This document shows, piece after piece, positions 24,736 through 48,600 of a stretch of 64,000 nucleotides of DNA (the first letter of the stretch is position 1; each line of letters begins with the position of its first letter). Both the position numbers and the translations under genes were made by a program. The notes under the pieces were generated by a model. It made no database searches, was not told where the DNA came from, and worked only from the letters and a program-made list of their open reading frames with translations. The DNA comes from Candidatus Krumholzibacteriia bacterium (GTDB taxonomy: Bacteria > Krumholzibacteriota > Krumholzibacteriia > Krumholzibacteriales > Krumholzibacteriaceae): positions 384,001 to 448,000 of the forward strand of contig CAWIIQ010000001.1 in NCBI GenBank assembly GCA_963836185.1. Reading direction: 5' to 3'.

Positions 24736-27700
24736 TGGTAATGGGAGAATATTCAAACAATACAGCGCCATCTTGCTTTTCCTTGCGGCCATTCTTAGCC
24801 CCATTAGTTTCGTTGCTCAAGAAGGCTCTATTGTAATTTTTGATCTTACTAACGAAATTGTTTTACAAAATGGACCTAATCAAATCGTAGATGATTATGC
24901 ACAAGGCAAGAAATGGGTGGCATATTTTCATGCAAGCATTCCTCATGCAGGCGGAGGACTGACATTCTCTATTGATTTGGCCGATATTTAGAAATATCGC
25001 CGGAAGGTAAGCAGGTTGGGTGACATTATGGATGGACGTTGATTTTAGTTTTGGGCTGGGCCTTCCTTTTGGTTTTGGAGTTATGCGAAGGGAATTTGAC
25101 GCGAACACGCCTGATGATCATACGTCTTTATATGATTGTAGTGTCGGAGGGTCAGTACCCTTTATAAGTGTTGAATCCCTAGGAGTGTCATCATCTGGTA
25201 GCGCTAAGCTATATTCTGCCAGCTTTAATAATCAGATGGAGTTAGGCGCAGGCATGGGATGTCAATTTCATGGAAATACAATAGAAATAAAGAGGGAATT
25301 GCTAGATTTCCTAATCTATCAGGCTATGGTGCCAGGAGTAACGGCGAATAATTTCGCGGCATCTCTTATATCTCGCATTATGAATCCTGTGGATATTTCA
25401 ATAACTGAGCTTATTACTTCATTTCGATTAACGACTAGTCAAGATGATGATGAATTCTACATGATTGAAGATATCCGTTATGATTATTTAGTGGTCGGCG
25501 AGTGGAGTAATATTGAAGTAGATGTTTATGTATTAGAGTCCGATTATTATAAGATGGAAGTGAGATCAGATGTTTTAGCTAGTCCTTGGCCACCATGGGA
25601 TTGGCAGGCGCGTGTAATTGAGAATGTGTATCTATATGCGAACCAGCGAAATACTATAACGTTGCGCGTCAAACCAGATACTGAAACAGGAGAAATTGCG
25701 GGTCTGGTTATATCAAAGAGATGGACCAATTACTTGGGATATTGTATGGAGAGTCAAATCCATACGAATTTAATACTGTTTCAACGATTCCTGACAGAAA
25801 TCCCCCAAGAGTTCTTTAGTCACAAACGCTGGCACAAATCCCGATACAAACATTGACGATGTTATTTTTAGTGAAGAGATGGCAGAGTTTTCATTTTCCA
25901 ATGGCACAGTCATTGTGCAGGGCAGTATGTCAGGGATTCATGATGTTTCTATGCAATACGATGAAGTCAGCTCAGAAACTTGCTCTCGATCCGACAACGA
26001 ATTTCTCGAATGACGAAATAGTAACAGTTAGTATATCACAGTTCGTACAAGACGTCGCCGGAAACGATCTTGGGAGTGACTATATTTACAGCTTTGAGGT
26101 TACTTCTGCGCCGAGTCCTGATCCTAGTGGTATTACATTAAACGCAAGTGTCACTCCTAGTTCTAGTGTGCCGGCATTCTCTCATATCATAGTATCGGGT
26201 ACAGCTCAGTATAACACTGGAAGTCCTGTGACTACAGCGACAATTCAGATAGACACGGGAGATAATGTATACACAGCGCCATTGACGAATGGGACGTATA
26301 GTCAGGATTGTGTTGCGCCCTCTGGCAGTAGGAATATTGTTATAAGTATATATGGTGATCCCTTTGGACTTCAAACCTCAGTAAGTAGATATATTTCTGT
26401 TGAAGGGGAAAGTCCGGGTGGCGATCTGTATGATTTTGGGAGAGCAACAGCTTGTATGGGTGTTTCTGGGGATCCTTGGTTGCCGATAATTGAAACCAGA
26501 TATTATAGTAGATATGACGGGAGAGCTTATGTCTGGATTGAGTTAAATGATGTGTATATTGATGGTGGTTATGATGACGACATCTTGTATAAATGGGAGT
26601 ACTATACACCAGCTGGCAGTGAATTGGATCCGGTTACTAGTTTTGTAAGTGATCCAAGAAATGACGACTATGAATATTGGGAATGGTGGAGGGATTATTC
26701 ATACATAAGTAATTTTGGCGGTAGTCCCGGTCGATGGACGTGTCTGTTCTCTGTAAATGAGGGGAATGGATACGAACTTCAGAGTACGATAGAGTTTACT
26801 GTAGGGTTTGAATATTCTGAGAATCGAATAGCTAAGGGTGTTAACCAAACTACCTTTCAGCCTATTGATCCTACTAACAGCTTTTCACCTGCCGATGCAG
26901 CAGTATATTCTTGGTGGCAGATCAATAACTTGTGTGAGGATCTGGATCTGAAATGGGAATGGATCGATCCTAAGGGGAATATATATACGACCTGGACAGA
27001 AGAGCCTATGTCAGATCACCATATTGGCCCTGGTTCCTTTGATCCGCCTTATGAAGAATATTTTAGTTATTGCTACATGAACATTGACGGAACTCCGGCG
27101 GTACAAAGATGCGGAACTTGGCAGGTGAATGCTTATGTCAAGAATGTAAGTGGATCTTGGGAATTAGAATATTCAGACAACTTCGAGATCATCGAGGATG
27201 AAGCCCCCTCCTTTACGAGCATATCTCATTATCCAACGGTTCCGTATGAAACGCAAGCGATAGCCGTGAATATCAGTGCTACTGATAATAATCATTTAGA
27301 TAAGATAGAAATATATTGGGATGATGGTTCATTGCATCAACAGTCTGTTGCGTTAAATATTGACAATTCTGAATATAATGGACAAGCATCCATTGGGGTT
27401 TTTGCTTCAGGCCAAGTAGTCGAAGTGTGGGCGGTTGCGACAGATGAATCAGGAAATGTCACTGAAAGTGATAGGATTGTTCTTAATATTCAGGCGGAGA
27501 TAGTTTCTGTGCCTGGTTGTCCAAATGGTCCTCAGTATTTGATGGCAGGCATTGAGGGGGAATATACAACTCAGGGATCTACATCAAGTTTGGGCAATCT
27601 AGTGCAGTATCGCTTTGATTGGGGCGGTGGCATGATATCGGATTGGAATAGTCCGGTTAGAACTAATGCTTGGTTCATTGATGATGTGTATTCAGTCAAG

Positions 27701-30626
27701 GCACAAGCGAGATCTCAGTCAAATCCTAGCAGAGAGTCTGCCTGGTCAACTGCTCTGCCTGTAATTGTTGATTCACAATCTCCTTTCGTCAGTATTTTGA
27801 CTAATGATGGTGCAGATACGGTTGTGACTGATCCGGAAATTCAAATATTCGGCATTACATCTGACCAGATGCCTTCATCTGGAATACTAGAGTCAAGCAT
27901 CAATACGGGTGATATCAATACAGGTGATGAATATGAGTGGGTGTTTGAAGTATCACTACTGCCCGGTATTAATGAGTTGGTTGTAACTTCAACGGATAAT
28001 TCAGGAAACAGCAAGAAAGACTCGATGAATGTTACATACGTGCCATATGACTCTGGCGATCATGTATGGCATGTTAAGCCTGATGGAACAGGTGAAGTTC
28101 TGACTATACAGGCAGGATAGCTCATGTGTAGTTGGGGATACCGTCCTTGTGCATCCGGGAACGTATACAGGAATTGGTAATCGCGAATTGGAATTTTTGG
28201 GTAAGGCAATAATGGTATTGGCTTATACAAGTTATGATGTAAATACCGTTGATCCTTCTGTCATTTCCAACGAGGAGCATGTTGCATTTCAACTTCACCA
28301 GAATGAGGATACGACTTCCATAATTGATGGATTGGAGATAGTGACAGACGGTAGTTTTACTACAGGTATATCTTGCATCTCATCATCCCCGAAGATCAGG
28401 AATTGCTGGATTCATGGAGGCAATCGGTCAATTCAAGCGAATCTGTCGTCACTAATAATTGAAAACAATATTATAGAGTATCAGGGAATGTCTGGGACAG
28501 GGATTGAATTCGAAGAATCCACACCTATCATAAGATATAACAATATCAAAGGAGACAATGAATACAGTACGGGGATTAGAATAACCTCTTGTTCAATGGC
28601 CGATATACATAACAATACGATTGATGTTTATGGTGGAGAAACGGCAGCGGGTATATCTATTAGTAATTCAACAGCAAATATATACAACAACAATATTGGT
28701 CCATGTAGCGGCTACTATCCTACGTGTATCAGTGCGACATCCTCGAACATAACCTTGATCGGTGATACCCTGCATCATTCTGGAGGCAGAGCTTATCACA
28801 CTGGAACTGCCTTGTATTGTCTGAACACATCTATTGTGATGACGGATAACTATGTTCATAGCAACGGCTCGGAATTTGGTTATTGTATCGAGATAAATGA
28901 TTCGCCAATGAGTACCATTGATAACAATATCATCGAAAATAATGGTACCGGCGGGATAAAGTTTTCGGGTGGAGAATCAAGCATTATCAGCAACAACAAG
29001 ATTGTCAATAATACTGAGATGGGAGGCATTCTTGTTAGTTCTTCAGTAACGATACGGGGTAATACTATAATAGGCAATAATACTGGCCTTGCTGATACTG
29101 GCTCTGATAACTGTGGGATTGCCTGTTATTCGTGTTCTCCGATAATTGAATACAACTTGATTGCGGGAAATCGTGGAATCAGTGGAGGTGGAATCTATTG
29201 TGAAGCCTCATCACCAACAATTGCATTCAATACTATATGCAATAATGAGGCTGGCAGAGGTGGAGGAATATTCTGTGACGAATTATCTTCACCAACCATA
29301 ATGAATACAATCGTTGCCGGAAATGTTCTTCGTGCGGGTCGATATTCGGACGGATGGGGCATTTACAGTGAATCAGATGGAATCACTTTCTCATGCAGTA
29401 ATATTTACAGTAACGATGGTGGAGAAGTTTACGGTGTAGATTATATAACTGGAGTAAACGGTAATATTTCTAACGATCCAGATTTTTGTGGAATGCTCGA
29501 AAATGAGTATTCTTTGAGTATTGACTCACCTTGCTTAGCTGGTAATCATCCTGATGGGGCATCTTGTGGACAAATCGGTGTCTATGGATGGGGTTGTTAT
29601 AGCACATACCCCCTAATTGCCAGCGTAGAAGATATTCCTGCCGATCAAGGACGCAGCGTGCAGCTTGCGTGGCACAGAAGCCGACATGATTATAGTGGCT
29701 CCGGTATGGAGATCACTCAATATGAGATATTCAGGCGCATCGATCAGTTACCACAAGCTCTATTCAATACTGTCGGTGATGAGCCTGATGATAGTGATGA
29801 GGGGCGCGACATAACAACTTATCCTCCTGGGAACTGGGACTATTTATTTTCCGTGGAAGCAACTAACACTGATTCATACGTCACTGAAGTAAGTACTTTG
29901 GAAGATTCGTGCAGGTTCAATGACTTAGATCCGCTATCTGATGAGCCGGCATACTTTTCGACTTTCTTTATTCGTGCATCAACAGCTGAACCAAGCTTAT
30001 TCTATGATTCGCCAGTCGATAGTGGGTATTCAGTCGATGATATAGTCCCAACCTTACTAAATGAGGTTATCTTTACTTACAATTCTAACGGCAGAAGGTT
30101 GGACTGGACTCGTTCAAGTGCCTTGGATCTGAAATGTTACAATATTTATTGTGATCGCTCAGACGGCTTTTCTCCTGGACCAGAAAACTTCATGGCCTCT
30201 ACAACTGACACTTTCTGGGTAGACCAGAATGGTGCGGGATATTTTCTTGAGAATTATTTGGTTACTGCGGTAGATAAGTCAGGCAATGAAAGCCTGCCAA
30301 TAGCGCCTAGTTCTATTGTAGATACCGAAGAGGGCATAACGCCTAAAGCAATTACGCTGCATCAGAATATTCCTAATCCTTTCAATCCAGTCACCACGAT
30401 CAATTTCGATCTTCCTGACGCTAATTCTCGAGTGACAATTACTGTCTACAATGTAGAAGGCAAGGTTGTAAGTAGGTTGTTGGATAAAGGACTGGAATCG
30501 GGAAGGCATAGTGTTACCTGGAACGGTGCAGATATGAGTGGTAACACAGTCTCGTCGGGATTGTATTTTTGCAAGATGACGGCTGGTGCATTCAGCAGTA
30601 CGATCAAGATGATATTGTTACGCTAA
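24719..30626 (+). CDS. Giant (about 1950 aa) secreted multidomain protein: SbsA/Big-type Ig, other Ig/FN3-like domains, beta-helix, pre-CTD module, FlgD-Ig CTD; split by frameshifts
   Basis: ORFs 24719-24991, 25020-25856, 25853-28120 and 28149-30626 join in register. The 28120/28149 junction reconstructs TIQAG(ID)SCVVGDTVLVHPGTY, matching paralog 39998 (NIQAGIDSCAVGDTVLVYPGTY). Confidence 0.75.
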
Positions 30627-30647
30627 GTATATGGAGGGGCAATCAGT

Positions 30648-33600
30648 ATGAAGAACTTTTTAAGTATGAAGGCTGCATTACTAATCCTATTGCTTCATTT
30701 CATAATTAGTATGAGCTGTTGTGCGACAGGTAGTGCGGCAGAACACAGTTTTAAGGAAAGCTTCAATACTACAGCGAATTGTTCAACTGCTAACACTACG
30801 GCCTGGTGGGACATAAGTTCTGGTGAATTGAAACTATATCCTTTTGATATAGAAATAATCACGCATGTGGAAATTTATGGCGGCCCATGGCAACTGGCAG
30901 TACATGGCGACTATATGTATGTTGCAGATGGACATCTGGGAATTAAAATATTTGAAATTAGTGATCCTGAGTCGCTTGTGTTAGTTGCCGTATATGATAC
31001 CCCTGGAAGCGCTTGTGATGTAAAAGTTCATGGAGATATTTTATACGTTACTGACATAGGATCAGGAGTTCTCGTGCTGGATATTTCCAATCCACAGTTT
31101 CCTGTTTATAGTAACAATGTTTACACTTCCGATTCTCCATATCATATTGAAATCTTGGGTGACAATGCATTTGTTTCGAACTGGGCAGATTCAACTGTTA
31201 CAGTATTAGACATTGTTGATCCCGCTAATCCAATAATGATTTCAGAAGTAGAAGAACCAGGGCGATGCGATGCAAATTCTTGCGCAAGGCGATTACGCAT
31301 ATATTGCCAGCTTAGACAGTGGATTATCAGTCATGAATATTTCTGATCCATATAGTCCGATAGTATGTGGGAGATACGTGACTGGTGACAAGGTAAGAAG
31401 GATGAGAAAATAAGGTAACTATATCTTTGCATCAAATGAGTATTCAGGAATGGTCATTCTGGATATTTCAGATCCAACCGATCCGTTTCTGGTGACATCT
31501 TTTAATACACCTATCAGGGCACTTGATATCGAATTAGACGGTTATTATCTGTATGTTGCAAGCGATTATAGCCTTGCCGTATTTGATGTGTCAGTTTTGT
31601 CTATTCCTGTCAAGATGTCAGAAGTTGGTACTACCAATAATGCAATTGGGCTATGGCTAGATGGAGAGTATGCATTCATTTCCTGCTATTCCGCGGGTAT
31701 AGATGTTGTACGGATTGCAGACGTTGCAGAGCAGCCTCTGGAAATTGGTTATGATAGCACATGGAGTGATGCTGGTGTATATAGGTGCTATTCTGAGGTC
31801 GCCGGTGACGTAATGTATGCGTCTGTTCAGCAGAACTTTTGTGGCTTATGATGTCTCATCCCCCTTGAACCCTGTTGTATTATCAAGTGCCAATCTGTGA
31901 TCAGACCGCAGTTATTAGCATTGAAATAACGGATAAGTGGGCTTACGTAGCCACAGGGGGGTATTATGATGGGTTCCAATGTGTAGACATATCTGATCCT
32001 AATGCAATCTCATATCATTCATCATATGCGTATCCTGCCAGGTACTTAGAGCTGGTGGGCGATGTTCTGTTTTTGTCCTGCCTTCAAAATGACAGAGCAT
32101 ATTTGCTGGACATTGGTTTTGAATATCCTGAAGAATATGTGTTGCTTAACGAATTCGGATTCGCGGCAGGATTGGGTGATATGGCAGCTGAAGGCGATTA
32201 TCTTTACGTCGCCAATAGTGATGAATGTGCCCATATTGTGGATATAAGCAATCCCGCTTCACCGTATCAAATAACTTGGATTAATAATGACCAATACACA
32301 AAGCGAGTAAAAGTCGCTGGAGATTTTATATATTGCATCAGGTGCACCTGGAATATCCTTCGCTGCAGTTCAAAATAGTATAGAGGCTGAATCGTCTGAT
32401 TGCTTTCAAATAAATTAATATTTCTGACCCAACTTTTCAAATCCAGCGCTTGTTGGGTCTTGCAATGTTGGCTCAGGCAGAATCATAGATTTTGAACTAT
32501 TCGGAAATTATGCTTTCTTGAATGATCGCTATGAAGGATTGTATGTTGTTGATATTTCAGATCCTTTAAATCCTGTAGCGATGGGTCATATACAGGGAAT
32601 GCCTGACTATGCCAGCAGTGTAATGCGCCATGGTGACTACCTGTATACCAATGACATCAATTCTAAGGGAATGCGAATATTGCGTGTTATTGACAGGGGA
32701 CACTACTTGACGTGTGGGAATACAGCGTCATCAGTACAAATATCGCCGGGGCAGCCTATTATCGCAGGACGAATTAAACCGGTATGCACAGGCGATATTC
32801 AATGGACACTTGATTTTTCTGACTTATATTTATGGAAAGGTGCTGTGCCTTGTGATTGGTATCACTTTGGTGCGCCTTAGTCAGGAAACATTGGTGGAAG
32901 CAGACTGCATTATTCCCAGATAGAAGTACTGCAATGTCAGGAGTTAGAAGTCGAATGGCTGTTCGAAAACGCAGCTATAGATTCAATAATGGACATTTCT
33001 AACGATCAAGGTGGGATTGTTCGAATTTCATGGTCAAGAAGTGGATATGATTTCCCAGCCCCAAATAATGATATTCCAATCTCGGATTATGTGGTCTACA
33101 GATGGAATGATACTGCTTGGGATTCTTTGATGGCAGTTCCTGCTCATTGTGAGGATATTTATTCTGTTGTCGTTGGAACGGTTGCAGATTCAACAGCGTA
33201 CGGAGAGTTGATATTTACCAAATACTTTGTTAGAGCATTTTCAAGGCAACTAGGTCAATACTTCGATTCCTCTCCTGACAGTGCATATTCGGTTGACAAT
33301 ATCTCTCCAGAATCACCGTTGAATTTCATGGTTCATTATCACTCAGATGAAAAAAATACTCTGACGTGGACCCAAGAAAGCAATAGTGATGTTTGTGGGT
33401 TCAACGTCTGTAGAGATTGTAAACAGAAACATGGAGCTGTCAGAGGATAATCTTCTATGTTTTACTGAAAATTCTGAGTTTGTGGATTCTGGGGCTGATG
33501 TATGGCAGTACTACTATTCAATAGCGTCAATTGATAAGGCGGGTAACGAGAGTGAACTTGTTGCTCCTGAAGTTGTAACAGATACAAACATTGATAAAAC

Positions 33601-33901
33601 ACCCAAAAGCTACCTGCTGTATCAGAACGTTCCCAATCCCTTTAATCCTTCGACTACAAATAGCTTCGATATTCCTGAATCAGCGCATGTCCAGTTGGCT
33701 ATATACAATATCAAGGGTGAACTGATAAATAATTTGATTGATGAATATTTGACTGCAGGGCATAAAGAAGTGAATTGGAATGCGATTGATGAATCAGGAA
33801 ATTCAGTTGCCAGTGGGATATATTTTTTTCGGATTAATAGCGGTGATTTTTCGACGAAAAAGATGGTATTGATCGTGGATCTTTTGCGCTATGCGATGTA
33901 A
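30648..33901 (+). CDS. Secreted LVIVD-repeat protein with pre-CTD module and FlgD-Ig CTD; multiple frameshifts
   Basis: Fragments with GDYMYVAD..GIKIFEISDP / VLDISNP / VVDISDP repeats, then DISNDQGG...SVDNISP and QNVPNPFNPSTT...KKMVLI. Confidence 0.8.
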
Positions 33902-34206: not shown

Positions 34207-34236
34207 TTGACAGGTAAGCTGAGTATGCTGTAGCAT
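34207..34236 (+). promoter_or_regulatory. Putative sigma70 promoter of the Lon-receptor operon
   Basis: TTGACA-N18-TAGCAT; the -35 is flanked by the short palindrome ACCTG-N5-CAGGT (34201-34215). Confidence 0.4.
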
Positions 34237-34277: not shown

Positions 34278-36563
34278 TTGAGGGATATTAGCGGCGTTTC
34301 CACGCGTAAGCTGGATGAGTGTCTTACTCATCTTTTCGATGATATAAGACAGGACCAGAAGAATCCTCTGTTGAGGGAATTTGCCATACTGAGCCTTGGC
34401 ACTATGATAGAGCAGAGGCCTGAATTTTCTCTTTCAATATATCTCCATTCTCACGGCAAATATATCGGTGAAAGTCTCTCCCAGCTGTTTCTTGCCACAT
34501 ACAGTTATGAAACTCTGCGACAGGTCGAATCTGTCTCCGCTGCACTATGCGATGTCTCGAGCGAATACATCCCTGGTGGAAGAGATGTCTGTCTCACGTA
34601 TACGAAGCAAAGACTGGAAGAGATTGAATCCGATTCGATTGGTTCAGCCCATGAAGAAGTATCAGCCACATCAGAGGATGATCGTTCGGATGACTGGCAG
34701 GTAACTTCAAAGGCAGGCCCTGTCTGGGGAGCTCTGGTTACCGGTTACCCGCCGAATAATCCGATCGTCAGTGTCGGGAAAGTGCTCGAATTCAAGCTTG
34801 GACTCGAGATCAGCGGCGAATGGAGCAGGAAGCACAAGCGCGAGACAGTAGAATTCGGCGGCAGCACCCTGATGAAAAAGGACGAATTCGAGAATCAGCT
34901 ACGGGAGTCGGTACGGTATGCCGAGAGTCAGTTTGTAGAAAAATACAAAGCCCGTGAGATCCCAGGCTTGAACAGACGGTACCAGTTTGAGGCGTACAGT
35001 GGGATCCATAGCTATAGCAACACGCCATATACAGGCGGCTCAGCAGGTCTGGCAAAATCGTTGCTTTCCATGACAGCTCTGGATGGACTCAGGGTCAGAA
35101 GCAGGCAGCGGCGGATTCATTCGGGAACGGCGTGCACTGGGCAGATAGATTCAGAGGGCAATGTGCTCGGTGTCAAGGATTCGGAGATCCCGGCCAAGAC
35201 AAAAGCGGTATTCAGGTCATCGTGTTCAAGGTTCGTAGTTCCGGAGAAAAACTTCGATACGGCTCGTAAAACACTCGATGAGCTGAACAGTGAGCATCCA
35301 GATCGGCATCTGGAACTGATCGCAGCCGCGAATGTCAGGGATGTCTATGAAAGCGATGACATATCGAGCGAGAAGATGGTGTCGGTCCCGAGCATTGCAA
35401 TTAACAAAGCCCGGCGCAAGAGGAAGACTCTTCTGGCATCAATATCCAGCGCCGTAGCAATTGTTGCTCTTGCCGTTGTGGGGATATTTTCATTGGTGTT
35501 TTTCACTGAGGATGTAAGCAGCGTCAGATTTGACGGCCATCGGATAGAATTTGTGAACCGCTTTGACAGGGTCTACAAAGAATTTGAGCTGCCCTACCAT
35601 GTTAATGTTAAGGGAGATAACAACTATACAGATACATCCGGCAAATCTCACCGGTTGATAATCGATGATATCACGGGAGATGGAAACAGAGAGTTGCTTT
35701 TCATCGGTGTTGCGGTGAATTCTGGTTCCACTGATCATTTCGGAACGGTCAATGTGCATCTGTTCGATGAGGAAGGCGATGAGCTGAGTCATGTTGAAGC
35801 ATTTGACAGTGTGAAGATGACGACAAAGGATGGAAGCAGATTCATTCGTGATATCAGCTACAACAAGGATGTTGTTGTAGACCTGAATGGAGATCGATTC
35901 AAAGAGGTCGTTCTGTATTTCGTTGAGCGCTTGTGGGCGCCGAGTGGGGTTGTGGTGTTTTCCTTGAAGGAAAAGTCTGCTCAGACATTTTTTCACAATG
36001 GGAACCTTCAAAACCTGATTGTGGATGATTGTGATGATGATGGCGTCCCTGACATCATTGTTACCACAGAATGTAACTATATCGATACCTCTGCTCTGAT
36101 CGTGCTGGACCCCGATCATGTCCAGGGGTCTTCTCCGAAACTTAAGGGTCTGCAGTTCGATGGATATGAGGGGAATGTAGCTAAATACATGATTTTTCTG
36201 CCCCAATCGATCGTGTTCAAGAATCAGAGCAAGAATGAGAGACCATCCATAAGAACATTGTTTTTAAATACCGCGGGGCGAGTTCAGATCGGGGTATGCG
36301 AATACAAGCTTCCGGATACCTGCGCATCCCTGTTGTATGAATTCTCTGCTGATTGGAATTGTGCGAGCGTAAGCGACACGGATCCATACTGGAAAGAGTT
36401 CATAAAGTATTACGATGATGGAGATATCGAACGAAATAGCGATGAGTATGACGATTACCTTAATTCGCTGAAAAGCGAGTTTCGATATCTCAATGGTGAT
36501 ACATTGACTTTCACCCCTGGTATGAACTCAGGGTACATGGCTCATGCAAACGAGACATCGTGA
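34278..36563 (+). CDS. Single-pass membrane protein: cytoplasmic Lon-like (S16) protease domain + TM + extracellular FG-GAP/VCBS-like repeats
   Basis: GGAGG RBS and TTG 34278. TGGSAGLA (catalytic Ser, codon 35040), ACTGQIDSEGNVLGV...IPAK (Lys, codon 35196) and FVVPEKN match Lon_C. KARRKRK precedes the hydrophobic TM; DITGDG/DLNGD/DCDDDG motifs follow. Confidence 0.8.
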   Translation: MRDISGVSTRKLDECLTHLFDDIRQDQKNPLLREFAILSLGTMIEQRPEFSLSIYLHSHGKYIGESLSQLFLATYSYETLRQVESVSAALCDVSSEYIPGGRDVCLTYTKQRLEEIESDSIGSAHEEVSATSEDDRSDDWQVTSKAGPVWGALVTGYPPNNPIVSVGKVLEFKLGLEISGEWSRKHKRETVEFGGSTLMKKDEFENQLRESVRYAESQFVEKYKAREIPGLNRRYQFEAYSGIHSYSNTPYTGGSAGLAKSLLSMTALDGLRVRSRQRRIHSGTACTGQIDSEGNVLGVKDSEIPAKTKAVFRSSCSRFVVPEKNFDTARKTLDELNSEHPDRHLELIAAANVRDVYESDDISSEKMVSVPSIAINKARRKRKTLLASISSAVAIVALAVVGIFSLVFFTEDVSSVRFDGHRIEFVNRFDRVYKEFELPYHVNVKGDNNYTDTSGKSHRLIIDDITGDGNRELLFIGVAVNSGSTDHFGTVNVHLFDEEGDELSHVEAFDSVKMTTKDGSRFIRDISYNKDVVVDLNGDRFKEVVLYFVERLWAPSGVVVFSLKEKSAQTFFHNGNLQNLIVDDCDDDGVPDIIVTTECNYIDTSALIVLDPDHVQGSSPKLKGLQFDGYEGNVAKYMIFLPQSIVFKNQSKNERPSIRTLFLNTAGRVQIGVCEYKLPDTCASLLYEFSADWNCASVSDTDPYWKEFIKYYDDGDIERNSDEYDDYLNSLKSEFRYLNGDTLTFTPGMNSGYMAHANETS

Positions 36564-37735
36564 AAAACAATACATCGGACAACGGCAGACATAAAGATCT
36601 TCTCGAGGCTTTCAAAAGGGTCCGGGATGTGTTTTCGTCGTATGGATCGGGCAGCATCGGGGGTCTCAGCCTCCCGCAGGCCGAGGACCTTGTCCGGAAG
36701 GAGCTTTTCACTCTTTATAACAGCTGTCAGTCGATGGCCAGGGACATTATCACGGGGAAGATATATGGATCTCATGCCTGTTACAGCTATTGCGGCGACC
36801 AGGATATCGATGCGGCAGCGGCGGATGCTGTCAGCAACCTGTTCGGGCATCGGAAGACTGTCAGCGGAAAAAGCGAATCGCCTACCGGCCTTTTTGAAAT
36901 CATCGGAGTAGTTCAGGCTCTCTGTGAGATCAATCCTGAAGCCGACAGGTCCAGATGTTTACTACTGGCTGCGAAAGACTGTTTACAACCATGTAAATAA
37001 CTACAATTACAGGAAGCTGAAAGAAAAAAGCCCTGAATACGCGAATACAGGCAAAAAGATAGACCGTTTTATCAACAATTCGGATCGATATCGAGTGCAA
37101 GGAAAGCTTGTTCGTGATACCGTCGTTGAATTTGATAAGCGTAGAAAGCAGGAACGCTTCGGCAGGATGAGATCGTGTCTTTGTGCGGACAGATAGACCC
37201 GCAGCCGACAAACATCCCCGCGGCAGTTGACCTGATCTTCGACCTGTTGGCCGAACAGGTGAAGTTCAGGTCGGAAGTGTCCCTTGCTGCGCTTCGAGTA
37301 GCGGTCTTCAAGATCATCGAGCCGAGACTGCCTTCCTGGACTCCGGGTGTGACCCAGAAGACTCCGTGGGATGATCTTATCCTTGGCCGTGCGGAGAAGG
37401 CAGCCGTCGATACCCTTAATGCTGCCGCAGAGAGTTATGCCTGGCGGAAGGGATTCACGGAAACCGAGAAATCCGCTTTTCTCGAGGCAGGGGCAGACTA
37501 TATCTTTGACCTCGTATATCGAGGTGAGCGTACAATGTCGCTGCACAAGTATCTTGCGGCGCATCTCGATGAATGCTCAAGTGTGTTGTATGAAACTGCG
37601 TACAAAGGAAGTATGCAGCACTTTTCCAAATATCTGCGTGAGGACTGGCGCAGGCGCGTGACTGACGACAGGCCGGACAAATTTGGCAAAGAGAGGAAAA
37701 ACCCGGATGCAGATCGCGAGAATGGCGACATATAA
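36560..37735 (+). CDS. Divergent sigma70/ECF-like factor (about 390 aa after repairing 2 frameshifts)
   Basis: Joined ORFs 36560-37000, 36924-37196 and 37175-37735; region-2-like DIDAAAADAVSNLF...YWLRKTVYNHVNNYNYRK; overlaps the upstream stop (GTGA) and precedes a zf-HC2 gene. Confidence 0.55.
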
Positions 37736-37746
37736 AGGGTGGGAAG

Positions 37747-38394
37747 ATGACACGACGTGATGAAATGAGGGGATGTTTATCCCGGGAAGGCCTGGGGAGT
37801 CTCGCCATTCGTATCGCACAGGATGCTGGCGACCCTGGAGCGCCTGGGGAAGGTTCGCCGGAATACCTTTCGGTGGACCTTTTTTCGCCAGATGAGGAGG
37901 AAATACGCCAACATCTCGAATCGTGCCCTTCCTGCCGGAAAAAGCTTCTGGAGGAAGTTTATTCAGCACGCAGGTATCTGGACGGACTAGAGAACCCGGA
38001 GAATATTAAACGGTTCGAAAAATTAATGGGCAGCGTTGAGGATCAGGATAGACAGATAGAATCCGACTATATAGAAACGATCCTGGTTTATGATGCCTAT
38101 GATCAAGGTGAAGGGATGGTCCCGCTGGCCGCAGATTCAGAACCAGATTTCACGCCGCCTATGCGCTTCTGTTCAGAAGACGGAACAATGATTATAAGGG
38201 AATTCCAGGAAAGTGGGTCCGCTCAACCGAAATATATGCTCATCGTGGAGGCCCCTAGTTTATCAGATGATGCAGAAGTTATCATAGGAGAGCAATCATT
38301 TCGTATAAGCCCGGAAGGCTGGCTTGAGCTTAAAGATTTAGCGATTGAGATAACCGAGAGTACAATATTCCGCATCCGTTCCAGGCGAAAGTGA
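37747..38394 (+). CDS. Soluble zinc-finger (zf-HC2/ZAS) anti-sigma-like protein with internal LAA motif
   Basis: GCLSRE...IRQHLESCPSCRKKL (Hx3Cx2C); no TM; VPLAADS at aa 125-131 followed by a beta-rich tail of about 86 aa. Confidence 0.7.
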   Translation: MTRRDEMRGCLSREGLGSLAIRIAQDAGDPGAPGEGSPEYLSVDLFSPDEEEIRQHLESCPSCRKKLLEEVYSARRYLDGLENPENIKRFEKLMGSVEDQDRQIESDYIETILVYDAYDQGEGMVPLAADSEPDFTPPMRFCSEDGTMIIREFQESGSAQPKYMLIVEAPSLSDDAEVIIGEQSFRISPEGWLELKDLAIEITESTIFRIRSRRK

Positions 38395-38439: not shown

Positions 38440-38829
38440 ATGAACAGCCGTTTCGTTCCGTTGATCATGGCACTGGTAATCCTAATGACATTTCTTCTCG
38501 CGTGCAGTGAAGATGAGAAGGATTTTCTCGTTCCGGACAACGTGCTTTCCGGGACAGTGACCAACAATTCAGGAATAACCGGGACAATATACGTAGAAAT
38601 TCAGTACAATCTCCGGGATGTCGCCGATGGAAGCGGACGATGGGCGATAAGCGTTCATGATGACTATTACGTCGATTCGCTTTACGCTTATGTCGATGTA
38701 AACGGCGATGATAACTACGATTCGGGCGAGCCTTTCGGCTTCTATCACGCTGCCGGTGAATATTCGACCGCCAAAGGCTTTCTTGTAAGAAACATGGATG
38801 TCAGCAATCTGGACTTTTCTATTCCCTGA
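38440..38829 (+). CDS. Small lipoprotein with Ig-like, possibly Ca-binding domain (DUF2141-like)
   Basis: AGGAGG RBS; lipobox LLAC; YAYVDVNGDDNYDSGEPFGFY. Confidence 0.75.
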   Translation: MNSRFVPLIMALVILMTFLLACSEDEKDFLVPDNVLSGTVTNNSGITGTIYVEIQYNLRDVADGSGRWAISVHDDYYVDSLYAYVDVNGDDNYDSGEPFGFYHAAGEYSTAKGFLVRNMDVSNLDFSIP

Positions 38830-38858: not shown

Positions 38859-39879
38859 GTGAGCTATGGGAAGTCAGCAACGGTGACTTGTCGGGATATA
38901 TATGAGTCCCTTGCCCTGAGGCACGCCCCCGTCCTGATGCAGAAGGTCAACCGGCACAATCCGCGCGGAGATCTCATCACTCGCGTAGACATGAGCGGTG
39001 ACCTTGACCGGGCTTGTCGACAACTGGGCTTATGTCAGCGACGAGCGCAACGAGCTTCCCGCCGCGGGATATTACTCCGTCGTCGAGACCGCTACCCACT
39101 ACTTCATCCTCTACGCCTTCTATCACGGGCAGGACTGGTACGACGGAGACCGGTTTGCCGACAAGATCCGGAAGATATTCGACGAGCACCTGCACGACAT
39201 GGAAGGCGCTCTGGCTGTCGTCACGAAGAGGGAGGATGAGGCGGATGAGCGTGTCGACGCTTTCATGACGATCAGCCACTTTCATTTCTACTGTTATACG
39301 GGGTGGATGAAGAGCGAGCTTGAGTATCTCTATCCGGACGCGGAGTGGGAGAACGGGATCCGCGGACTCACCGAGAGCATCGACGGCAGTATCTGGCCGA
39401 TGGAGGATGGTGATCGGATACGGTTCGCGCTGTACGCACAGGCGAGGGGGCACGGAATCAGGGGGGACCGCAAGGGTTGGGGCTCCGAGAAGCATATCAT
39501 CCCTTACTATCCATCGCTCACAGAGAGCGATTCGCCTGATACGGGCGGGAGCATCTACGGTAAGAGCAGGGAGCTTCTGCTTCCCGATGTCAGGTACAGG
39601 TTGATCGATTTTAATGAGCCGGGAGGGCTCTGGGAGAACCGCGGCAATCCGGATGTCTTCCAGGAGAATGAGAAGGGTCAGGTGGCGTTCGTTATTCTTG
39701 ACGATGATGGCAGGAGGACCGCCGGCTCGGCCAACCCTCCGTGGGGCTGGGAGGACATCGACGATCGTCACGACTGCGGGATGATCGCGCTGGACCCGGC
39801 GCGGCTCGTCCATGATTATCTCGACGGTTTCCCCGAGTTCAGCCTGGAATATATCCACAATCCTTATCTCAGCATCTGA
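38859..39879 (+). CDS. Hypothetical protein with NPP1/Vps62-like motifs (frameshift near 39000)
   Basis: LALRHAPVLMQ...DNW...YYSVVETATHYFILYAFYHGQDW...HLHDMEG...ARGHG. Confidence 0.6.
39643..39863 (+). repeat. Direct repeat copy 1 (3' end of 38859-39879)
   Basis: About 221 bp with about 18 mismatches (hand count) versus 42642-42862. Confidence 0.95.
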
Positions 39880-39997: not shown

Positions 39998-42637
39998 ATG
40001 CGCGCAAGAGTATTCTTGTCGATCCTGGTGTCTGTTCTTCTGTCAAGCCAGGCTTCCGTGGCAGATATCTGGATCGTTAAAGATGACGGTTCAGGTGACG
40101 CAGTCAACATCCAGGCAGGAATAGATTCCTGCGCAGTCGGTGACACAGTTCTTGTGTATCCTGGAACCTACTCTGGATACGGTAATCGAGAGCTGGAATT
40201 CCGTGGAAAAGCAATAACAGTGATTTCATCAAGAAGTTACGATGCTGGAGTGACTTCCTGGTCGACTATAGAAGGTGAAGCATACCGTGCTTTTTACCTC
40301 CAGCAGTACGAAGACACGAATTCGGTAATAGATGGATTTGAGATCAGCACCAATACTTTGAATACTCCAGGCATTCATTGTCTTATCTCTTCGCCGAAGA
40401 TAAAAAACTGCTGGATTCACGGGACCAGTCCTGCCATCAGGGCTGATTCATCCTCGATGATCGTCGAATATACGGATATTACTTCTTTTTCCGGGCTTTC
40501 TGGAACAGGGATAGAATGTTCCGCATCATCGATGCCGATCATCAGGCATAATTCGATCAGTGGAAGTAACGAAAACAGCGGTGGAATCTGGCTCAAGTCG
40601 GGAACCTCAGCAACGATATTCGGCAATACTATTGAAATCGACGGCGGGGATTTCGGCTCGGGGATATACATCACTGATTCCTCGGCAGATATTTACGATA
40701 ATGATTTTGGACCGATCCGCGGGCTAGTCGGGAACTGCATTTATGCGGATGACTCGGATATCGTCATTACGAATAATGTTTTTCATGGTAGCGGAGGCGG
40801 GGCTAATTATACTTTAGGTTCGGGGCTCTATTGTGATAACACGACCGTGAATATGTCAGGAAACGATCTCTACGACAATGATGCTGGATTCAGTTATTGC
40901 ATCTATATCAGGAATTCTCCATACAGCAGTATTGTCGATAACAACATCACGTCCAACTATTCCGGTGGAATCTACTTTTCCGGAGATTTATCCAGCGTTA
41001 TCAGCGGAAACCTGATAGAGGACAATACCGAGATGGCCGGTATAAGCTGTCATTCCTCAATACAGATCAGCAATAATGTCATCATAGGGAACAATATCCA
41101 TCGCGCTGAGCCCTCATCGAACAGTTGTGGCATTATCTGCGATTCGTGCTCGCCGACAATAGAGTACAACATAATCGCGGGAAATTACGGATATGACGGA
41201 GGTGGTATCTACTGTGAAGACGCCAACCCGAATTTATATCGCAATACGATATACGGAAACAGAGCAAGGCGCGGAGTAGGGATATTCTGTGATTCGTCGT
41301 CAGATCCGACCATTCTGAGTACTGTAATATCCAGCAACACGAGGTTCGATCCGGCATTTGAAGGTGGTGGTATATACGTTGAATCATCGGGTCCCTCCGT
41401 AGATCCACCCGTTGATTGCAGCAACGTCTGGGGCAATGAAGGAGCCAACTATATCGGAATGACGGATCCGACTGGATCTGACGGCAACATATCTTCCAAT
41501 CCTCACTACTGCAACTCGAGCGGCGACGATTTTACGCTAAGAGCCAATTCGCCATGTCTTCCGGAAAATCATCCGGATGGATATACATGCAGTGTGATCG
41601 GCGCGAAGGATATGGGATGCGCTGCAATCGGTGCTGCAATGATTGCAGCCTTACATGATCTCCTGAACGATCAGGGACGGATGCTCCGTATCCGCTGGTT
41701 CAGGAGCGAATACGATGTGTCAGGATCTAATTTGCCTATATTGACTTATGAGATCTACAGGCGGATAGACGATCTTCCATCCCAACTCGCTCATGCTGAG
41801 GGCGGGAATGTATTGAAGTCAGTCTCGGGACCAGCCTATCCACCGGGGGACTGGGACTTTGTGATGGATGTTCCCGCGCACGGAGAGGACGAATACAACT
41901 TGGTCGTGCCCACACTCGAGGATTCATGTGCATACAACGATACGACCATGGCGGGAGACCCTCTTTACTATTCTGTTTTTTTTATAAGAGCAACGACATC
42001 GGACCCGACGTTATTCATAGATTCTCTGCCTGACAGCGGATACTCGGTCGATAATCTGGCGCCTGCGGTACCGGGTGGACTGTCTGTGGCATATAACACG
42101 GGTAGTGGAAATCAGATCGACTGGGAGGAAAGCACTGAAGAGGATTTTGGGTATTTCAGGATCTACAGGGGTGAGGCAGAGGACTTTATATGTGGACCCG
42201 GGAATCTCGCTCATTCAACCACCGGGACAGACTGGCTGGATGATACAGAACAGGGATGGCGCTATTACTATAAGGTCACGGCAATCGATCTCAACGGCAA
42301 TGAGGGTGACCCCGCCTCCGCTACTATAGTGACAGGCGCTGACCTGCCGGTGGTCCCGACGGAGTTCATGCTCTACCAGAACGCTCCGAATCCGTTCAAT
42401 CCTGTAACCAGGATAATGTTCGATCTTCCACATGCGTCTCATGTGAAGCTCTGCGTCTATAACATAAAGGGAGAGCTGATCTCGACGATCGTGGACGGCC
42501 ACATGGCTGAGGGACGAAAAGAAGTGACCTGGTCGGCTGCGGACAATGGGGGGAGAAGAGTGGCGAGCGGAGTGTACTTCTACCGCCTGGTTGCCGGCAG
42601 ATTCATCGAGACCCGGAAAATGGTGCTGTTGAGATAA
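39998..42637 (+). CDS. Secreted beta-helix protein with pre-CTD module and FlgD-Ig/T9SS-like CTD; paralog of the C-terminal half of 24719-30626
   Basis: Signal peptide; GI.C..SSP repeats; DLLNDQGR...DSGYSVDNLAP; QNAPNPFNP...RKMVLLR. Confidence 0.9.
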   Translation: MRARVFLSILVSVLLSSQASVADIWIVKDDGSGDAVNIQAGIDSCAVGDTVLVYPGTYSGYGNRELEFRGKAITVISSRSYDAGVTSWSTIEGEAYRAFYLQQYEDTNSVIDGFEISTNTLNTPGIHCLISSPKIKNCWIHGTSPAIRADSSSMIVEYTDITSFSGLSGTGIECSASSMPIIRHNSISGSNENSGGIWLKSGTSATIFGNTIEIDGGDFGSGIYITDSSADIYDNDFGPIRGLVGNCIYADDSDIVITNNVFHGSGGGANYTLGSGLYCDNTTVNMSGNDLYDNDAGFSYCIYIRNSPYSSIVDNNITSNYSGGIYFSGDLSSVISGNLIEDNTEMAGISCHSSIQISNNVIIGNNIHRAEPSSNSCGIICDSCSPTIEYNIIAGNYGYDGGGIYCEDANPNLYRNTIYGNRARRGVGIFCDSSSDPTILSTVISSNTRFDPAFEGGGIYVESSGPSVDPPVDCSNVWGNEGANYIGMTDPTGSDGNISSNPHYCNSSGDDFTLRANSPCLPENHPDGYTCSVIGAKDMGCAAIGAAMIAALHDLLNDQGRMLRIRWFRSEYDVSGSNLPILTYEIYRRIDDLPSQLAHAEGGNVLKSVSGPAYPPGDWDFVMDVPAHGEDEYNLVVPTLEDSCAYNDTTMAGDPLYYSVFFIRATTSDPTLFIDSLPDSGYSVDNLAPAVPGGLSVAYNTGSGNQIDWEESTEEDFGYFRIYRGEAEDFICGPGNLAHSTTGTDWLDDTEQGWRYYYKVTAIDLNGNEGDPASATIVTGADLPVVPTEFMLYQNAPNPFNPVTRIMFDLPHASHVKLCVYNIKGELISTIVDGHMAEGRKEVTWSAADNGGRRVASGVYFYRLVAGRFIETRKMVLLR

Positions 42638-42641
42638 CAAT

Positions 42642-42881
42642 GGCAATCCGGATGTCTTCCAGGAGAATGAGAAGGGTCAGGCGGCTTTCGTCGTCCTTGA
42701 CGATGATGGCTGGAAGATCGCCGGCTCGGCCAACCCTCCGTGGGGCTGGGAGGACATCGACGATCGTCACGACTGCGGGATGATCGCGCTGGACCCGGCG
42801 AGGCTCGTCCATGATTATCTGGGCGGCTTTCCCGAATTCAGCCTCGAATATATACGTAATCCATTTATCGACTCAGGGTGA
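42642..42881 (+). pseudogene. Direct repeat copy 2: displaced or orphan 3' end of the NPP1/Vps62-like gene
   Basis: Open frame GNPDVFQENEKGQAAF...EYIRNPFIDSG* with no start codon, beginning 4 bp after the stop of 39998-42637. Confidence 0.85.
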
Positions 42882-45630: not shown

Positions 45631-48600
45631 TTATCTCACTACGATCATCTTTTTCGTAGCGAAGTATTCTCCGGCTCTCAGCCTGTAGAAGTAAATCCCC
45701 GAAGCGATATTAAATGCCTCGAAGCTCACATCATGTCGCCCGGCCGAACGAGGTCCGTTGACGAGGGTCGCAATCTCTCGTCCCGACACATCGTATACCT
45801 TGAGGGATACGTTCTGAGAGGTTGGGAGAGTGAACGAGATCGTCGTAACGGGATTGAACGGGTTCGGGTGGTTCTGATCGAGCCCGTACGTCTCGGCAAT
45901 GGGCATGTCCTGCTCCTGCTCGGGCTTCTTCATCTTTTCGACGAGCGCCTCAGCGTCAGCCTTGCTGCAGTAGATCTTCGGGAACTCTACGACCGCGCCG
46001 TTCGGCAGGGCCGCGAAGAGCCCGAAGCCCTCTCCGTTCTGGTTGGACGCAGGATCGACGAATCCGCTGGCGAATACGACCGCCGCGCCTCCGTCGAGAC
46101 CTGTGAGGTCTATCTCGTAAAGCCCGACCACAGTGAAATCCCAGTCCCAGATACCCGAATAGTTCGCCAGAACCAGCGCCTTGTTCATCTTCGGCTTCAG
46201 CGATTCGTAATCAGTCATGTCGCCGTACTTGGCGTCATCGACAACAAGCTGGCCGAAGAAGACGTATACGTCGACCATCGGCGCGTCGGTCGCTCCGTGA
46301 AGCGTGAAGAACTCGACCTTCGACGGATCCATAGCGGCCTCGCGCGCTCCAGCCTTGGCGAAGAGTGTGAAGCCGATGTCGCGCCCGTCGGGATTGGCAG
46401 CGAACATCGCCGGATCGAGCACTCCGTTGGCGACGACCGCGTAGGTCTCGTCTGCCATCAGAGTCACCGGGAAGGTTGCGATTATGTCGCCCGCTCCCGT
46501 GCTCGTTCCCGGAGCGACTCCGATAACTAGCTCCACTTCGGCGGGTACGTCGATATACGGCGTGGCCGTGCGGAATGCGAAGTCATCGAGCTCCAGATTG
46601 CCGTTGATGTAGATATCGACCTCGGCAGCGCCCGGATCGGCCGCGTTATGGATCACCTGAAGGCGCGCCATGGCCATAGGCGGATCTGCGGGAGGGAATT
46701 CGACGACCGCGCCGTTCAGGCAGGGCCGCGAAGAGCCCGAAGGCCGCTCCGCCCTGGTTGTCGCCAGGTGTGAGGAACCCGCTGGCGAAAACTACAGCGG
46801 CTCCGCCGGCGAGACCGGATAGGTCGGCCTCGAAGGAGGCGACGATAGTCGAATTGTCGTCACCGGGTGTCACATCGAGGATGTAACTTGCCGGCGGAAC
46901 CGGAATATAACCTGTCATGTCGCCGTAGGCGGCGTTGTCGACGAGTGTCGCCACGCCGCGCGCGATCACGTCTACGGTCGGAGCGTCGGTCGCTCCGTGA
47001 AGCGCGAAGAACTCGACCATCGACATGTCCATCGCCGCTTCTCTGGCTCCAGCCTTGGCGAAGAGCGTAAACGCGATATCCAGCCCGTCAGGGTTGGCAG
47101 CGAACATCGTCGGATCGAGCACACCGTTGGCGATGACAGCGTAAGTCTCGTCTGCCATCAGAGTCACCGGGAAGGTGGCGAGGATATCGCCGGGGCCGGT
47201 GCTCGTGCCGGGAGCTACGCCGATAACGAGCTCTACGTTGGCCGGTACGTCAAGGTACTCCGTAGCTGTGCGGAACGCGAAGTCGTCCTTGAACAGGGCG
47301 TCGTTGACGTAGATGTCTACCACAGCAGCGCCCGGATCGGCCGCGTTATGGATCACCTGGAGGCGGGCCGTCGTCAGCGCGGGGAACTCTACGACCGCGC
47401 CGTTCAGGCAGGGCCGCGAAGAGCCCGAAGGCCGCTCCGCCCTGGTTGTCGGCGGGTGTGAGGAACCCGCTTGCGAACACGACTGCCGCTCCACCGGCCA
47501 GGCCGCTGAGATCGGCCTCGAACGAGGCAACTACCGTCGCGTTGTCGTCACCCGGAGTCACATCGAGGATGTAACTTGCCGGCGGAACCGGAATATAACC
47601 GGTCATGTCGCCGTAGGCCGCGTTATCGACCAGAGTGGCGACGCCGCGGGCGATGACATCTACGGTCGGCGCGTCGGTCGCTCCGTGAAGCGCGAAGAAC
47701 TCGACCATCGACATGTCCATCGCCGCTTCTCTGCGCTCCAGCCTTGGCGAAGAGCGTAAACGCGATATCCAGCCCGTCAGGGTTGGCAGCGAACATCGTC
47801 GGATCGAGCACACCGTTGGCGATGACAGCGTAGGTCTCGCCGGCCATCAGAGTCACCGGGAAGGTGGCGATGATATCGCCGGGGCCGGTGCTCGTGCCGG
47901 GGGCTACGCCGATAACGAGCTCTACGTTGGCCGGTACGTCAAGGTACTCCGTAGCTGTGCGGAACGCGAAGTCGTCCTTGAACAGGGCGTCGTTGACGTA
48001 GATGTCTACCACAGCAGCGCCCGGATCGGCCGCGTTATGGATCACCTGGAGGCGGGCCGTCGTCAGTGCCGGGAACTCTACGACCGCGCCGTTCGGCAGG
48101 GCCGCGAAGAGCCCGAAGGCCGCTCCGCCCTGGTTGTCGGCGGGTGTGAGGAACCCGCTGGCGAACACGACTGCCGCTCCACCGGCCAGGCCGGTGAGAT
48201 CGGCCTCGAACGAGGCAACTACCGTCGCGTTGTCGTCACCGGGTGTCACATCGAGGATGTAACTTGCCGGCGGTACCGGAATATAACCGGTCATGTCGCC
48301 GTAGGCCGCGTTATCGACCAGAGTCGCCACGCCGCGGGCGATCACGTCTACCGTCGGAGCGTCGGTCGCTCCGTGAAGCGCGAAGAACTCGACCATCGAC
48401 ATGTCCATCGCCGCTTCTCTGCGCTCCAGCCTTGGCGAAGAGCGTAAACGCGATATCCAGGCCGTCAGGGTTGGCGGCGAACATCGTCGGATCGAGCACA
48501 CCGTTGGCGATGACCGCGTAGGTCTCGTCTGCCATCAGAGTCACCGGGAAGGTGGCGATGATGTCGCCGGGGCCGGTGCTCGTGCCGGGAGCTACGCCGA

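Follow-up and report, generated by a model that had tools for sequence, protein, structure and literature searches.

This study focused on three adjacent genes in a stretch of 64,000 nucleotides (the window) from a Candidatus Krumholzibacteriia bacterium (GenBank assembly GCA_963836185.1, contig CAWIIQ010000001.1, positions 384,001 to 448,000 of the forward strand). Gene 1 specifies a predicted receptor with a Lon-type protease domain on the inner side of the membrane and a partial beta-propeller on the outer side, gene 2 a divergent sigma-like protein, and gene 3 a soluble anti-sigma-like protein (Table 1). Together they form a real and conserved signalling unit, here called the triad and apparently undescribed so far, in which a signal from outside the cell would lead, by way of a single proteolytic cut, to the release of the gene 2 protein. 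None of the three genes received an above-cut-off name from Pfam, NCBIfam or PADLOC. Genes 1 and 2 overlap by 4 bp (36560-36563, GTGA), and genes 2 and 3 are separated by 11 bp (37736-37746). These positions bear out the tight coupling claimed in an earlier, sequence-only reading of the window. That reading made no mention of the interruption of gene 2, which in this assembly is not a single open frame.

Table 1. Positions of the triad genes and their predicted features within the window
Feature	Position	Strand	Basis or remark
Putative sigma70-type promoter-like site (TTGACA, 18 nt, TAGCAT)	34207..34236	+	ahead of the operon; sequence
Gene 1, single-pass receptor-type protease, 761 amino acids (aa)	34278..36563	+	sequence, homologues, predicted model
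Predicted catalytic Ser255 codon (GGSAG)	35040..35042	+	aligns with the Lon catalytic region
Predicted catalytic Lys307 codon	35196..35198	+	52 residues past Ser255
Predicted membrane helix after basic cluster, N-in/C-out	35430..35504	+	hydropathy peak 2.7
Gene 2, divergent sigma-like protein (~360 aa in relatives)	36560..37735	+	fold of the intact own-genome paralogue
Gene 3, soluble anti-sigma-like protein, 215 aa	37747..38394	+	sequence and homologues
H56-x3-C60-x2-C63 zinc anti-sigma motif	37912..37935	+	zf-HC2 match just under its cut-off
Leu127-Ala128-Ala129 (LAA), putative cleavage site and cryptic C-terminal degron	38125..38133	+	conservation; CalpT analogy

The receptor-type protease

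The gene 1 protein comprises a helical N-terminal domain (residues ~8-121), a Lon protease domain (~142-366), a membrane helix (~385-409) and a partial beta-propeller (~411-757). In its AlphaFold model (predicted local distance difference test, pLDDT, 83) the protease domain matches E. coli Lon (1rr9) with a VIA Z of 20.6 and a root-mean-square deviation (rmsd) of 2.3 Å over 177 of 182 residues; the Foldseek E-value is 1.5e-8, and the profile of the family matches Lon at E 2e-10. The Lon-type domain of the sequence-only reading, with a serine in GGSAG and a lysine 52 residues on, was thus recovered, and the two residues were confirmed as Ser255 and Lys307. Both are kept in 133 of the 135 full-length homologues (those of at least 650 aa, from 152 sequences in hand), at a spacing of 52 residues in 123 of these 133. 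The dyad is invariant among 70 diverse sequences, and conservation within the family is highest in the catalytic region. As had also been read, no AAA+ ATPase is present, either in the Pfam scan or in the model; a helical domain of ~120 aa precedes the protease, and gene 1 lacks the AAA+ module that defines the ATP-dependent LonA and LonB proteases. The Pfam scan gave no match to a SAVED domain. A single-sequence search of the PDB with gene 1 gave one chance match only, and a profile search of the contigs with a three-sequence alignment gave 198 pattern matches, none of which was confirmed.

A single hydrophobic segment occurs in gene 1, after the sequence KARRKRK, and the model has a helix at this membrane position. 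In 132 of the 135 homologues the segment of strongest hydrophobicity is located 90-200 residues past the serine, and in 130 the net charge is more positive on the N-terminal side of the helix; with a strict hydropathy cut-off, a single segment is called in 116 homologues, none in 16 and two in 3. Since the dyad, the position of the segment and its charge asymmetry are all conserved, selection acts on the protease, and its predicted place is on the cytoplasmic side. From its sequence, gene 1 very probably encodes an active protease. The exported FG-GAP-like domain that had been placed after the basic cluster and helix agrees with the hydropathy profile and with Pfam FG-GAP matches on two homologues (P0002 and P0003). 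A search among representatives of 50% identity clusters gave 950 homologues of gene 1 at E<=1e-3, of which 387 reach E<=1e-10.

The C-terminal region aligns with part of the propellers of integrin alpha (Z 12.6, rmsd 6.2 Å, 233 residues). About five blades were counted by eye in the list of propeller strands, so that in the model the ring may be open. Profile matches of the ectodomain to YesW-type lyases cover only ~85 residues of the repeat. A role as sensor is supported by a fusion, a single case, in which a helix and ectodomain of the gene 1 type (receptor-profile positions 396-753, 266 bits) replace the usual C-terminus of a Ser/Thr kinase (Pkinase, E 4e-47) directly behind an extracytoplasmic function (ECF) sigma factor (E 2e-44; L142:1-3299, G251:C7), a kinase form of the receptor. 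The ectodomain of gene 1 quite probably acts as a sensor. Tandem receptor pairs are common (nine loci, including L043 and L141) and some receptors of the family have a doubled ectodomain, both of which are compatible with activation driven by assembly. In one pair (L043:6450-11019, G055:C26) the first receptor has lost both catalytic residues (GGSAG to DDPAG, and Lys to Asn), and its sequence makes a pseudo-protease co-receptor possible. At another locus (L141:1654-5756) there are two tandem receptor-like open reading frames (ORFs) in which the profile match ends at the membrane helix, and a Pfam scan of the first gave no match; these receptors possibly carry another ectodomain. The receptors of Ignavibacteria (L068-L074) are ~1030-1070 aa long where complete, ~300 residues above the usual length.

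The partner proteins

Gene 3 encodes an N-terminal part with the zinc motif, a linker containing LAA, and a C-terminal domain that is beta-rich by sequence pattern. Its earlier description as a soluble anti-sigma-like protein of the Hx3Cx2C type is supported by the motif H56-x3-C60-x2-C63, which matches zf-HC2 at E 3e-4, and by the match of the family profile to RsiW (E 7e-4). In the ESM Atlas, gene 3 gave unnamed clusters and one in which 35% of members have zf-HC2. Median pairwise identity within the family is 17%, and the two alanines of LAA are its most conserved columns, present in 59 and 60 of 60 homologues (46 of which were chosen by position; a few truncated ORFs and near-duplicates were excluded). 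The pattern [LMFYW]AA occurs in 59 of the 60, whereas shuffled sequences give it in 10.3 on average and in 20 at most; it is retained even where the zinc motif has been lost, and an AA motif is found in 73 of 77 triads. Among 11 gene 2 loci without an adjacent receptor, 2 keep LAA (L110 and L119), and their genomes have receptors elsewhere; at the other 9, gene 3 is represented by its N-terminal part only (4), is full but without LAA (1), or is absent (4). This distribution fits an arrangement in which the N-terminal part would serve gene 2, while LAA and the C-terminal domain would serve the protease. Four loci without an adjacent receptor (L112, L122, L126 and L135) have gene 2 followed only by a gene 3 N-terminal part of 70-95 residues, and from their sequences would be either minimal sigma/anti-sigma-like pairs or remnants.

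According to the available text of 10.1101/2024.05.08.593097, CalpL cuts CalpT within LAAA, between LAA and the final alanine, and the new LAA end is a degron. By analogy with CalpT, a cut of gene 3 at LAA can be proposed with good confidence; that gene 3 holds the gene 2 protein is likely, if a little less firmly so.

Gene 2 is present in this assembly as three overlapping pieces (36560-37000, 36924-37196 and 37175-37735); the frame shifts near 36935 and again, with the opposite sign, near 37165. The three frames match successive parts of an intact relative (L034) at 33-49% identity. The breaks are likely to be assembly errors because the assembly is error-prone: frame switches were seen in 4 of 27 matches of same-genus ORFs, with 7 switches in 25.6 kb (a rough figure, shadow ORFs on the opposite strand being counted in), and the ORFs affected include genes read as rubrerythrin and ferritin with 93-94% identity. 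In addition, the gene upstream of the triad in the window (LVIVD, 30648-33901) is in about six pieces, and a receptor paralogue in the same genome is split, the copies of its relatives being whole. There is thus a good chance that this copy of gene 2 is intact in the cell and broken in the assembly only. The gene 2 of a distant triad (L137) is broken too. A second triad in the same genome (G000:C1:179314-184353, L004:7315-12354, minus strand) shares 23-31% identity with the first; its genes 2 and 3 are intact, and its receptor has a doubled ectodomain and is split by a frameshift in this assembly. Beside it, in divergent orientation, lies a gene pair that we take to resemble BlaI/BlaR1.

The intact gene 2 paralogue of this genome was folded (pLDDT 84, predicted template modelling score 0.52), and the first five ranks of its Foldseek search are all sigma factors. 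Residues 9-150 match sigma domain 2, with a best Z of 7.7 and an rmsd of 2.8-3.2 Å (WhiG, ShbA), and sigma or sigma-like chains make up, by our own count, 22 of the 27 matches listed over these residues. Alignments with sigmaA are collinear from region 1.2 to region 4; no isolated match to sigma domain 4 is present among the 50 matches listed, which leaves such a relation possible. The family conserves the pattern D-x-A-x-D-x5-F, with a Phe spacing that presumably corresponds to that of region 2.2. An acidic motif in region 2.2 is required for binding core RNA polymerase, and the gene 2 pattern resembles it (available text of PMC8999054). Gene 2 has neither the Pfam region 2/4 match nor the length of ~170-200 aa that identify ECF sigma factors, and the ESM Atlas gave no usable match for it. 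The sigma-like assignment of the sequence-only reading therefore stands in part: the predicted fold supports it over domain 2, but every sequence test was negative. Going by the model, it is moderately likely that gene 2 works as a sigma factor on RNA polymerase, and its identity is the weakest link of the mechanism proposed below. Two loci (L120 and L121, in two genomes) have gene 2 without its partners, and the genes downstream of it are presumably an Lrp-type regulator and a glutamine synthetase.

Distribution of the triad

Gene 1 was matched in 33 of 208 genomes of the phylum, in 17 by the FG-GAP repeat only and in 16, including that of the window, across the Lon domain. The 15 other Lon-matching genomes comprise 12 with a full triad, 2 in which it is cut by contig ends, and 1 (G044) in which the receptor lies apart from genes 2 and 3. 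Gene 2 is found in 15 of the 208 genomes, all of which also have the receptor. Outside the phylum, the unit occurs in 31 of 151 genomes of a distant class, and the distant relatives that carry it include Balneola, Gracilimonas, Rhodothermales, Ignavibacteria and metagenome contigs, with intact triads in named Gracilimonas strains (L061-L063). Their gene order is gene 2, gene 3, receptor, so that two orders exist across triads.

Altogether 111 loci were collected, 96 with a receptor-profile match, and 77 of these 96 are triads, of which 68 remain distinct at 95% gene 2 identity and 47 at 50%, as would be expected if the three genes are conserved together in other genomes. Among the 19 receptor loci not counted as triads, 16 break off at the place expected for the partners (the G044 receptor is one of them); of the remaining three, one is a triad with a gene 3 under threshold, one is the kinase fusion described above, and one has two receptors with partners on another contig. 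Of the 32 loci in a census anchored on gene 2, 17 are triads (4 of these known from the first set), 4 are truncated at contig ends, and 11 are the loci described above that lack a neighbouring receptor. Synteny of the locus extends across a genus, and the trees of the three genes track each other (Spearman about 0.7). The locus had been described as CRISPR-free, and this agrees with a search of the genome (92.5% complete) in which Cas1 had no match (Cas10 was not searched) and with a crude scan of the genome and the 77 triad loci that found no array-like repeats.

Proposed mechanism, alternatives and surroundings

It is proposed that a ligand outside the cell would cluster the gene 1 receptor through its partial propeller, and that the clustered cytoplasmic Lon domain would then cut the gene 3 protein after the conserved LAA. 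The N-terminal fragment, bearing an exposed LAA end, would be removed by ClpXP (ClpX is encoded in this genome), and the gene 2 protein, once released, would act as a divergent sigma factor and switch genes on. The probability of this mechanism in full, from the receptor to the freed sigma-like protein, is put at roughly 55%; activation by oligomerisation, taken by itself, is favoured. More tentatively, and on balance doubtful as a whole, there may exist a widespread class of receptor Lon proteases that is a proteolytic counterpart of the receptor kinases, with a ligand-assembled partial propeller, paired active and dead receptors, one LAA cut that unmasks a ClpXP degron, and a three-domain sigma factor invisible to family libraries. 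If the mechanism is true, it would add a route of bacterial transmembrane signalling, in which sensing outside and cutting inside are done by one membrane protein, with no need for an intramembrane protease or an anti-sigma factor anchored in the membrane. The CRISPR-linked logic of Lon protease, LAA degron and sigma factor would then serve outside immunity as well, and a sigma-like family would have been overlooked by Pfam and NCBIfam. The predicted cut site is given to the residue level, which makes the mechanism directly testable, and a protease output joined to a swappable ectodomain would be a useful part for synthetic receptors.

A number of observations weigh against this mechanism. For gene 2, an additional domain, winged-helix-like, stands in the middle of the homologues (325-400 aa); no Foldseek E-value is better than 0.26; a Z of 7.7 falls in the range that the tool assigns to possible common arrangements of helical bundles; and the alignments with sigmaA reach domain 4 only at an rmsd of 17-19 Å. 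None of 42 members matches a Pfam sigma family, a PDB profile search with gene 2 gave no match, and profile-profile comparison with ten ECF sigma factors of the same genome scored 17.8-21.9, under the reversed-profile control of 26.5. The gene is also broken in this assembly, and its breaks were not spanned by contigs of one DNA run (share 0.06). For the other genes, the Pfam Lon_C match of the gene 1 family is below its cut-off, the zinc motif is kept in 33 of the 60 gene 3 homologues and missing in 27, and the joint loss of LAA and receptor could be plain decay. At least five genomes that bear gene 2 (completeness not established) gave no receptor match. Most of the material behind the census profiles came from the same loci, and related genomes do not count as independent, so the triad count is to be read as a description and not as an independent statistic.

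The points concerning gene 2 lead to the best-surviving alternative, in which the receptor and the LAA cut hold and gene 2, without initiating transcription as a sigma factor, would be an appropriator or inhibitor of RNA polymerase acting through its sigma-2-like domain, or a winged-helix-like DNA-binding regulator. The missing sequence signal and middling Z would be explained, as would the resemblance of residues 153-246 to a Tn3 transposase DNA-binding region (Z 6.2) and the matches listed for residues 255-361, which are only assorted helical bundles. Upstream of the operon, no dedicated promoter motif came to light beside AT-rich 7-mers and sigma70-type hexamers, and no regulon-wide search was made. 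On the other hand, sigma chains dominate three fold lists, the conserved D-x-A-x-D-x5-F pattern resembles the core-binding motif, and the partner bears an anti-sigma zinc motif; this alternative is unlikely. An envelope-triggered defence or dormancy switch, in which a phage or predator protein activates the protease and the freed gene 2 protein arrests growth, is rather improbable. It would suit the sole PADLOC match, CARF_LON on the gene 1 Lon domain (weak, E 6.5e-4), the patchy spread of the triad both within the phylum (16 of 208 genomes) and in the distant class, and the growth arrest of E. coli upon CalpS release (available text of 10.1101/2024.05.08.593097), but at the loci read (no systematic scan) the neighbours are secreted and housekeeping genes and not genes of defence, and the genus-wide synteny, the co-varying gene trees and the lack of a cas1 match all point away from it. 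That LAA is a docking or adaptor signal, with the Lon domain cutting itself or gene 2, or that the trigger is membrane shedding or envelope stress and not ligand clustering, is the least probable: the gene 1 N-terminal helical domain is unmatched to the CalpL substrate-binding domain, the membrane helix lacks a conserved dimer motif and a catalytically dead tandem copy is retained (L043), but LAA lies in a variable interdomain linker, is identical to the mapped CalpT site as given in the available text, and is gone where no receptor was found.

The proposed release of a sigma-like protein by a receptor protease has parallels in several known systems. BlaR1, of the BlaR1/MecR1-BlaI system, is a zinc metalloprotease of multi-pass type whose sensor binds penicillin and whose target is a repressor. 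The system shares with gene 1 the combination of outside sensor and protease in one membrane protein and a soluble cytoplasmic regulator as target, but gene 1 is single-pass, its protease is a Lon-type serine protease, and its target is anti-sigma-like. In the DegS/RseP pathway the anti-sigma factor RseA spans the membrane and is cut sequentially by two proteases. Both DegS/RseP-RseA-sigmaE and the triad, as proposed, would turn an envelope signal into an anti-sigma fragment ending in Ala-Ala that is cleared by ClpXP; in the triad, by contrast, the protease is part of the receptor and the anti-sigma-like protein is a soluble one. One-step transmembrane proteolysis, as put forward from the sequence, would differ from DegS/RseP in these two respects, and it has a one-step precedent in BlaR1/MecR1. 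The degron of RseA is VAA, as cited in the available text of 10.1101/2024.05.08.593097.

With CalpL-CalpT-CalpS, as far as the available text describes it, the triad shares an ATP-independent Lon Ser/Lys protease and a three-gene layout of protease, anti-sigma and sigma, and gene 3 is like CalpT a soluble two-domain partner with LAA between its domains. CalpL activation requires filament formation, and its cleavage is in trans (same source). The differences are that gene 1 has no SAVED domain or CRISPR link, its input being a membrane helix and propeller; that the Ser-Lys spacing is 52 residues in gene 1 and 41 in CalpL; that the N-terminal part of the partner is zinc anti-sigma or helical in gene 3 and MazF-like in CalpT; and that the output protein, of ~360 aa, is not ECF-like by sequence, unlike CalpS. 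Because of the missing SAVED domain and CRISPR context, the other dyad spacing and the other partner folds, the triad is best read as working like CalpL-T-S without being a member. The suggestion that SAVED had been replaced by a transmembrane segment and propeller is correct as to what is present and absent, but descent from CalpL is unsupported, given the spacing and the absence of CalpL from the structure and profile matches listed for gene 1, which leaves a relation possible. Type III-E TPR-CHAT (Csx29)-Csx30-CASP-sigma is likewise a protease/anti-sigma/sigma triad, but Csx29 is a caspase-type protease triggered by target RNA inside the cell (per the available text of 10.1101/2024.05.08.593097). 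Kinase-activated ECF sigma factors (ECF43 EcfP/PknT and ECF217; available text of PMC8999054) are also controlled by an adjoining membrane receptor with a cytoplasmic enzyme, and the kinase at L142 carries the gene 1 ectodomain; there the sigma factor is phosphorylated and no anti-sigma factor is involved, whereas proteolysis of a partner is proposed here. No published description of a receptor-Lon triad was found in a search whose scope did not extend to most subscription papers and bioRxiv supplements, and the available text of 10.1101/2025.11.14.688446 makes no mention of it.

The promoter-like pattern ahead of the operon, which was picked after the sequences had been viewed, recurs upstream in 14 of 15 close relatives (shuffle mean 1.1; three loci with an unclear start or a contig edge are omitted) and in 16 of 33 distant relatives (shuffle mean 5.7, maximum 13). 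ECF sigma factors typically autoregulate, whereas the sigma70-type site points to housekeeping expression; a housekeeping promoter probably drives the operon, which would serve as a standing sentinel. The next gene downstream, gene 4 (38440-38829), was considered as part of the module and rejected, since it has no homologues at 17 related loci. Around the triad lies a cluster of proteins of secreted type whose C-terminal domains are FlgD-Ig or Por-secretion domains, among them beta-helix and LVIVD-repeat proteins (window positions 25853-33901, 39998-42637 and 45631-46677). Positions 42633-42869 of the window are a partial copy, 86% identical, of the C-terminal part of ORF 38998-39879, and are followed by a fragmented PEP-synthase-like gene.

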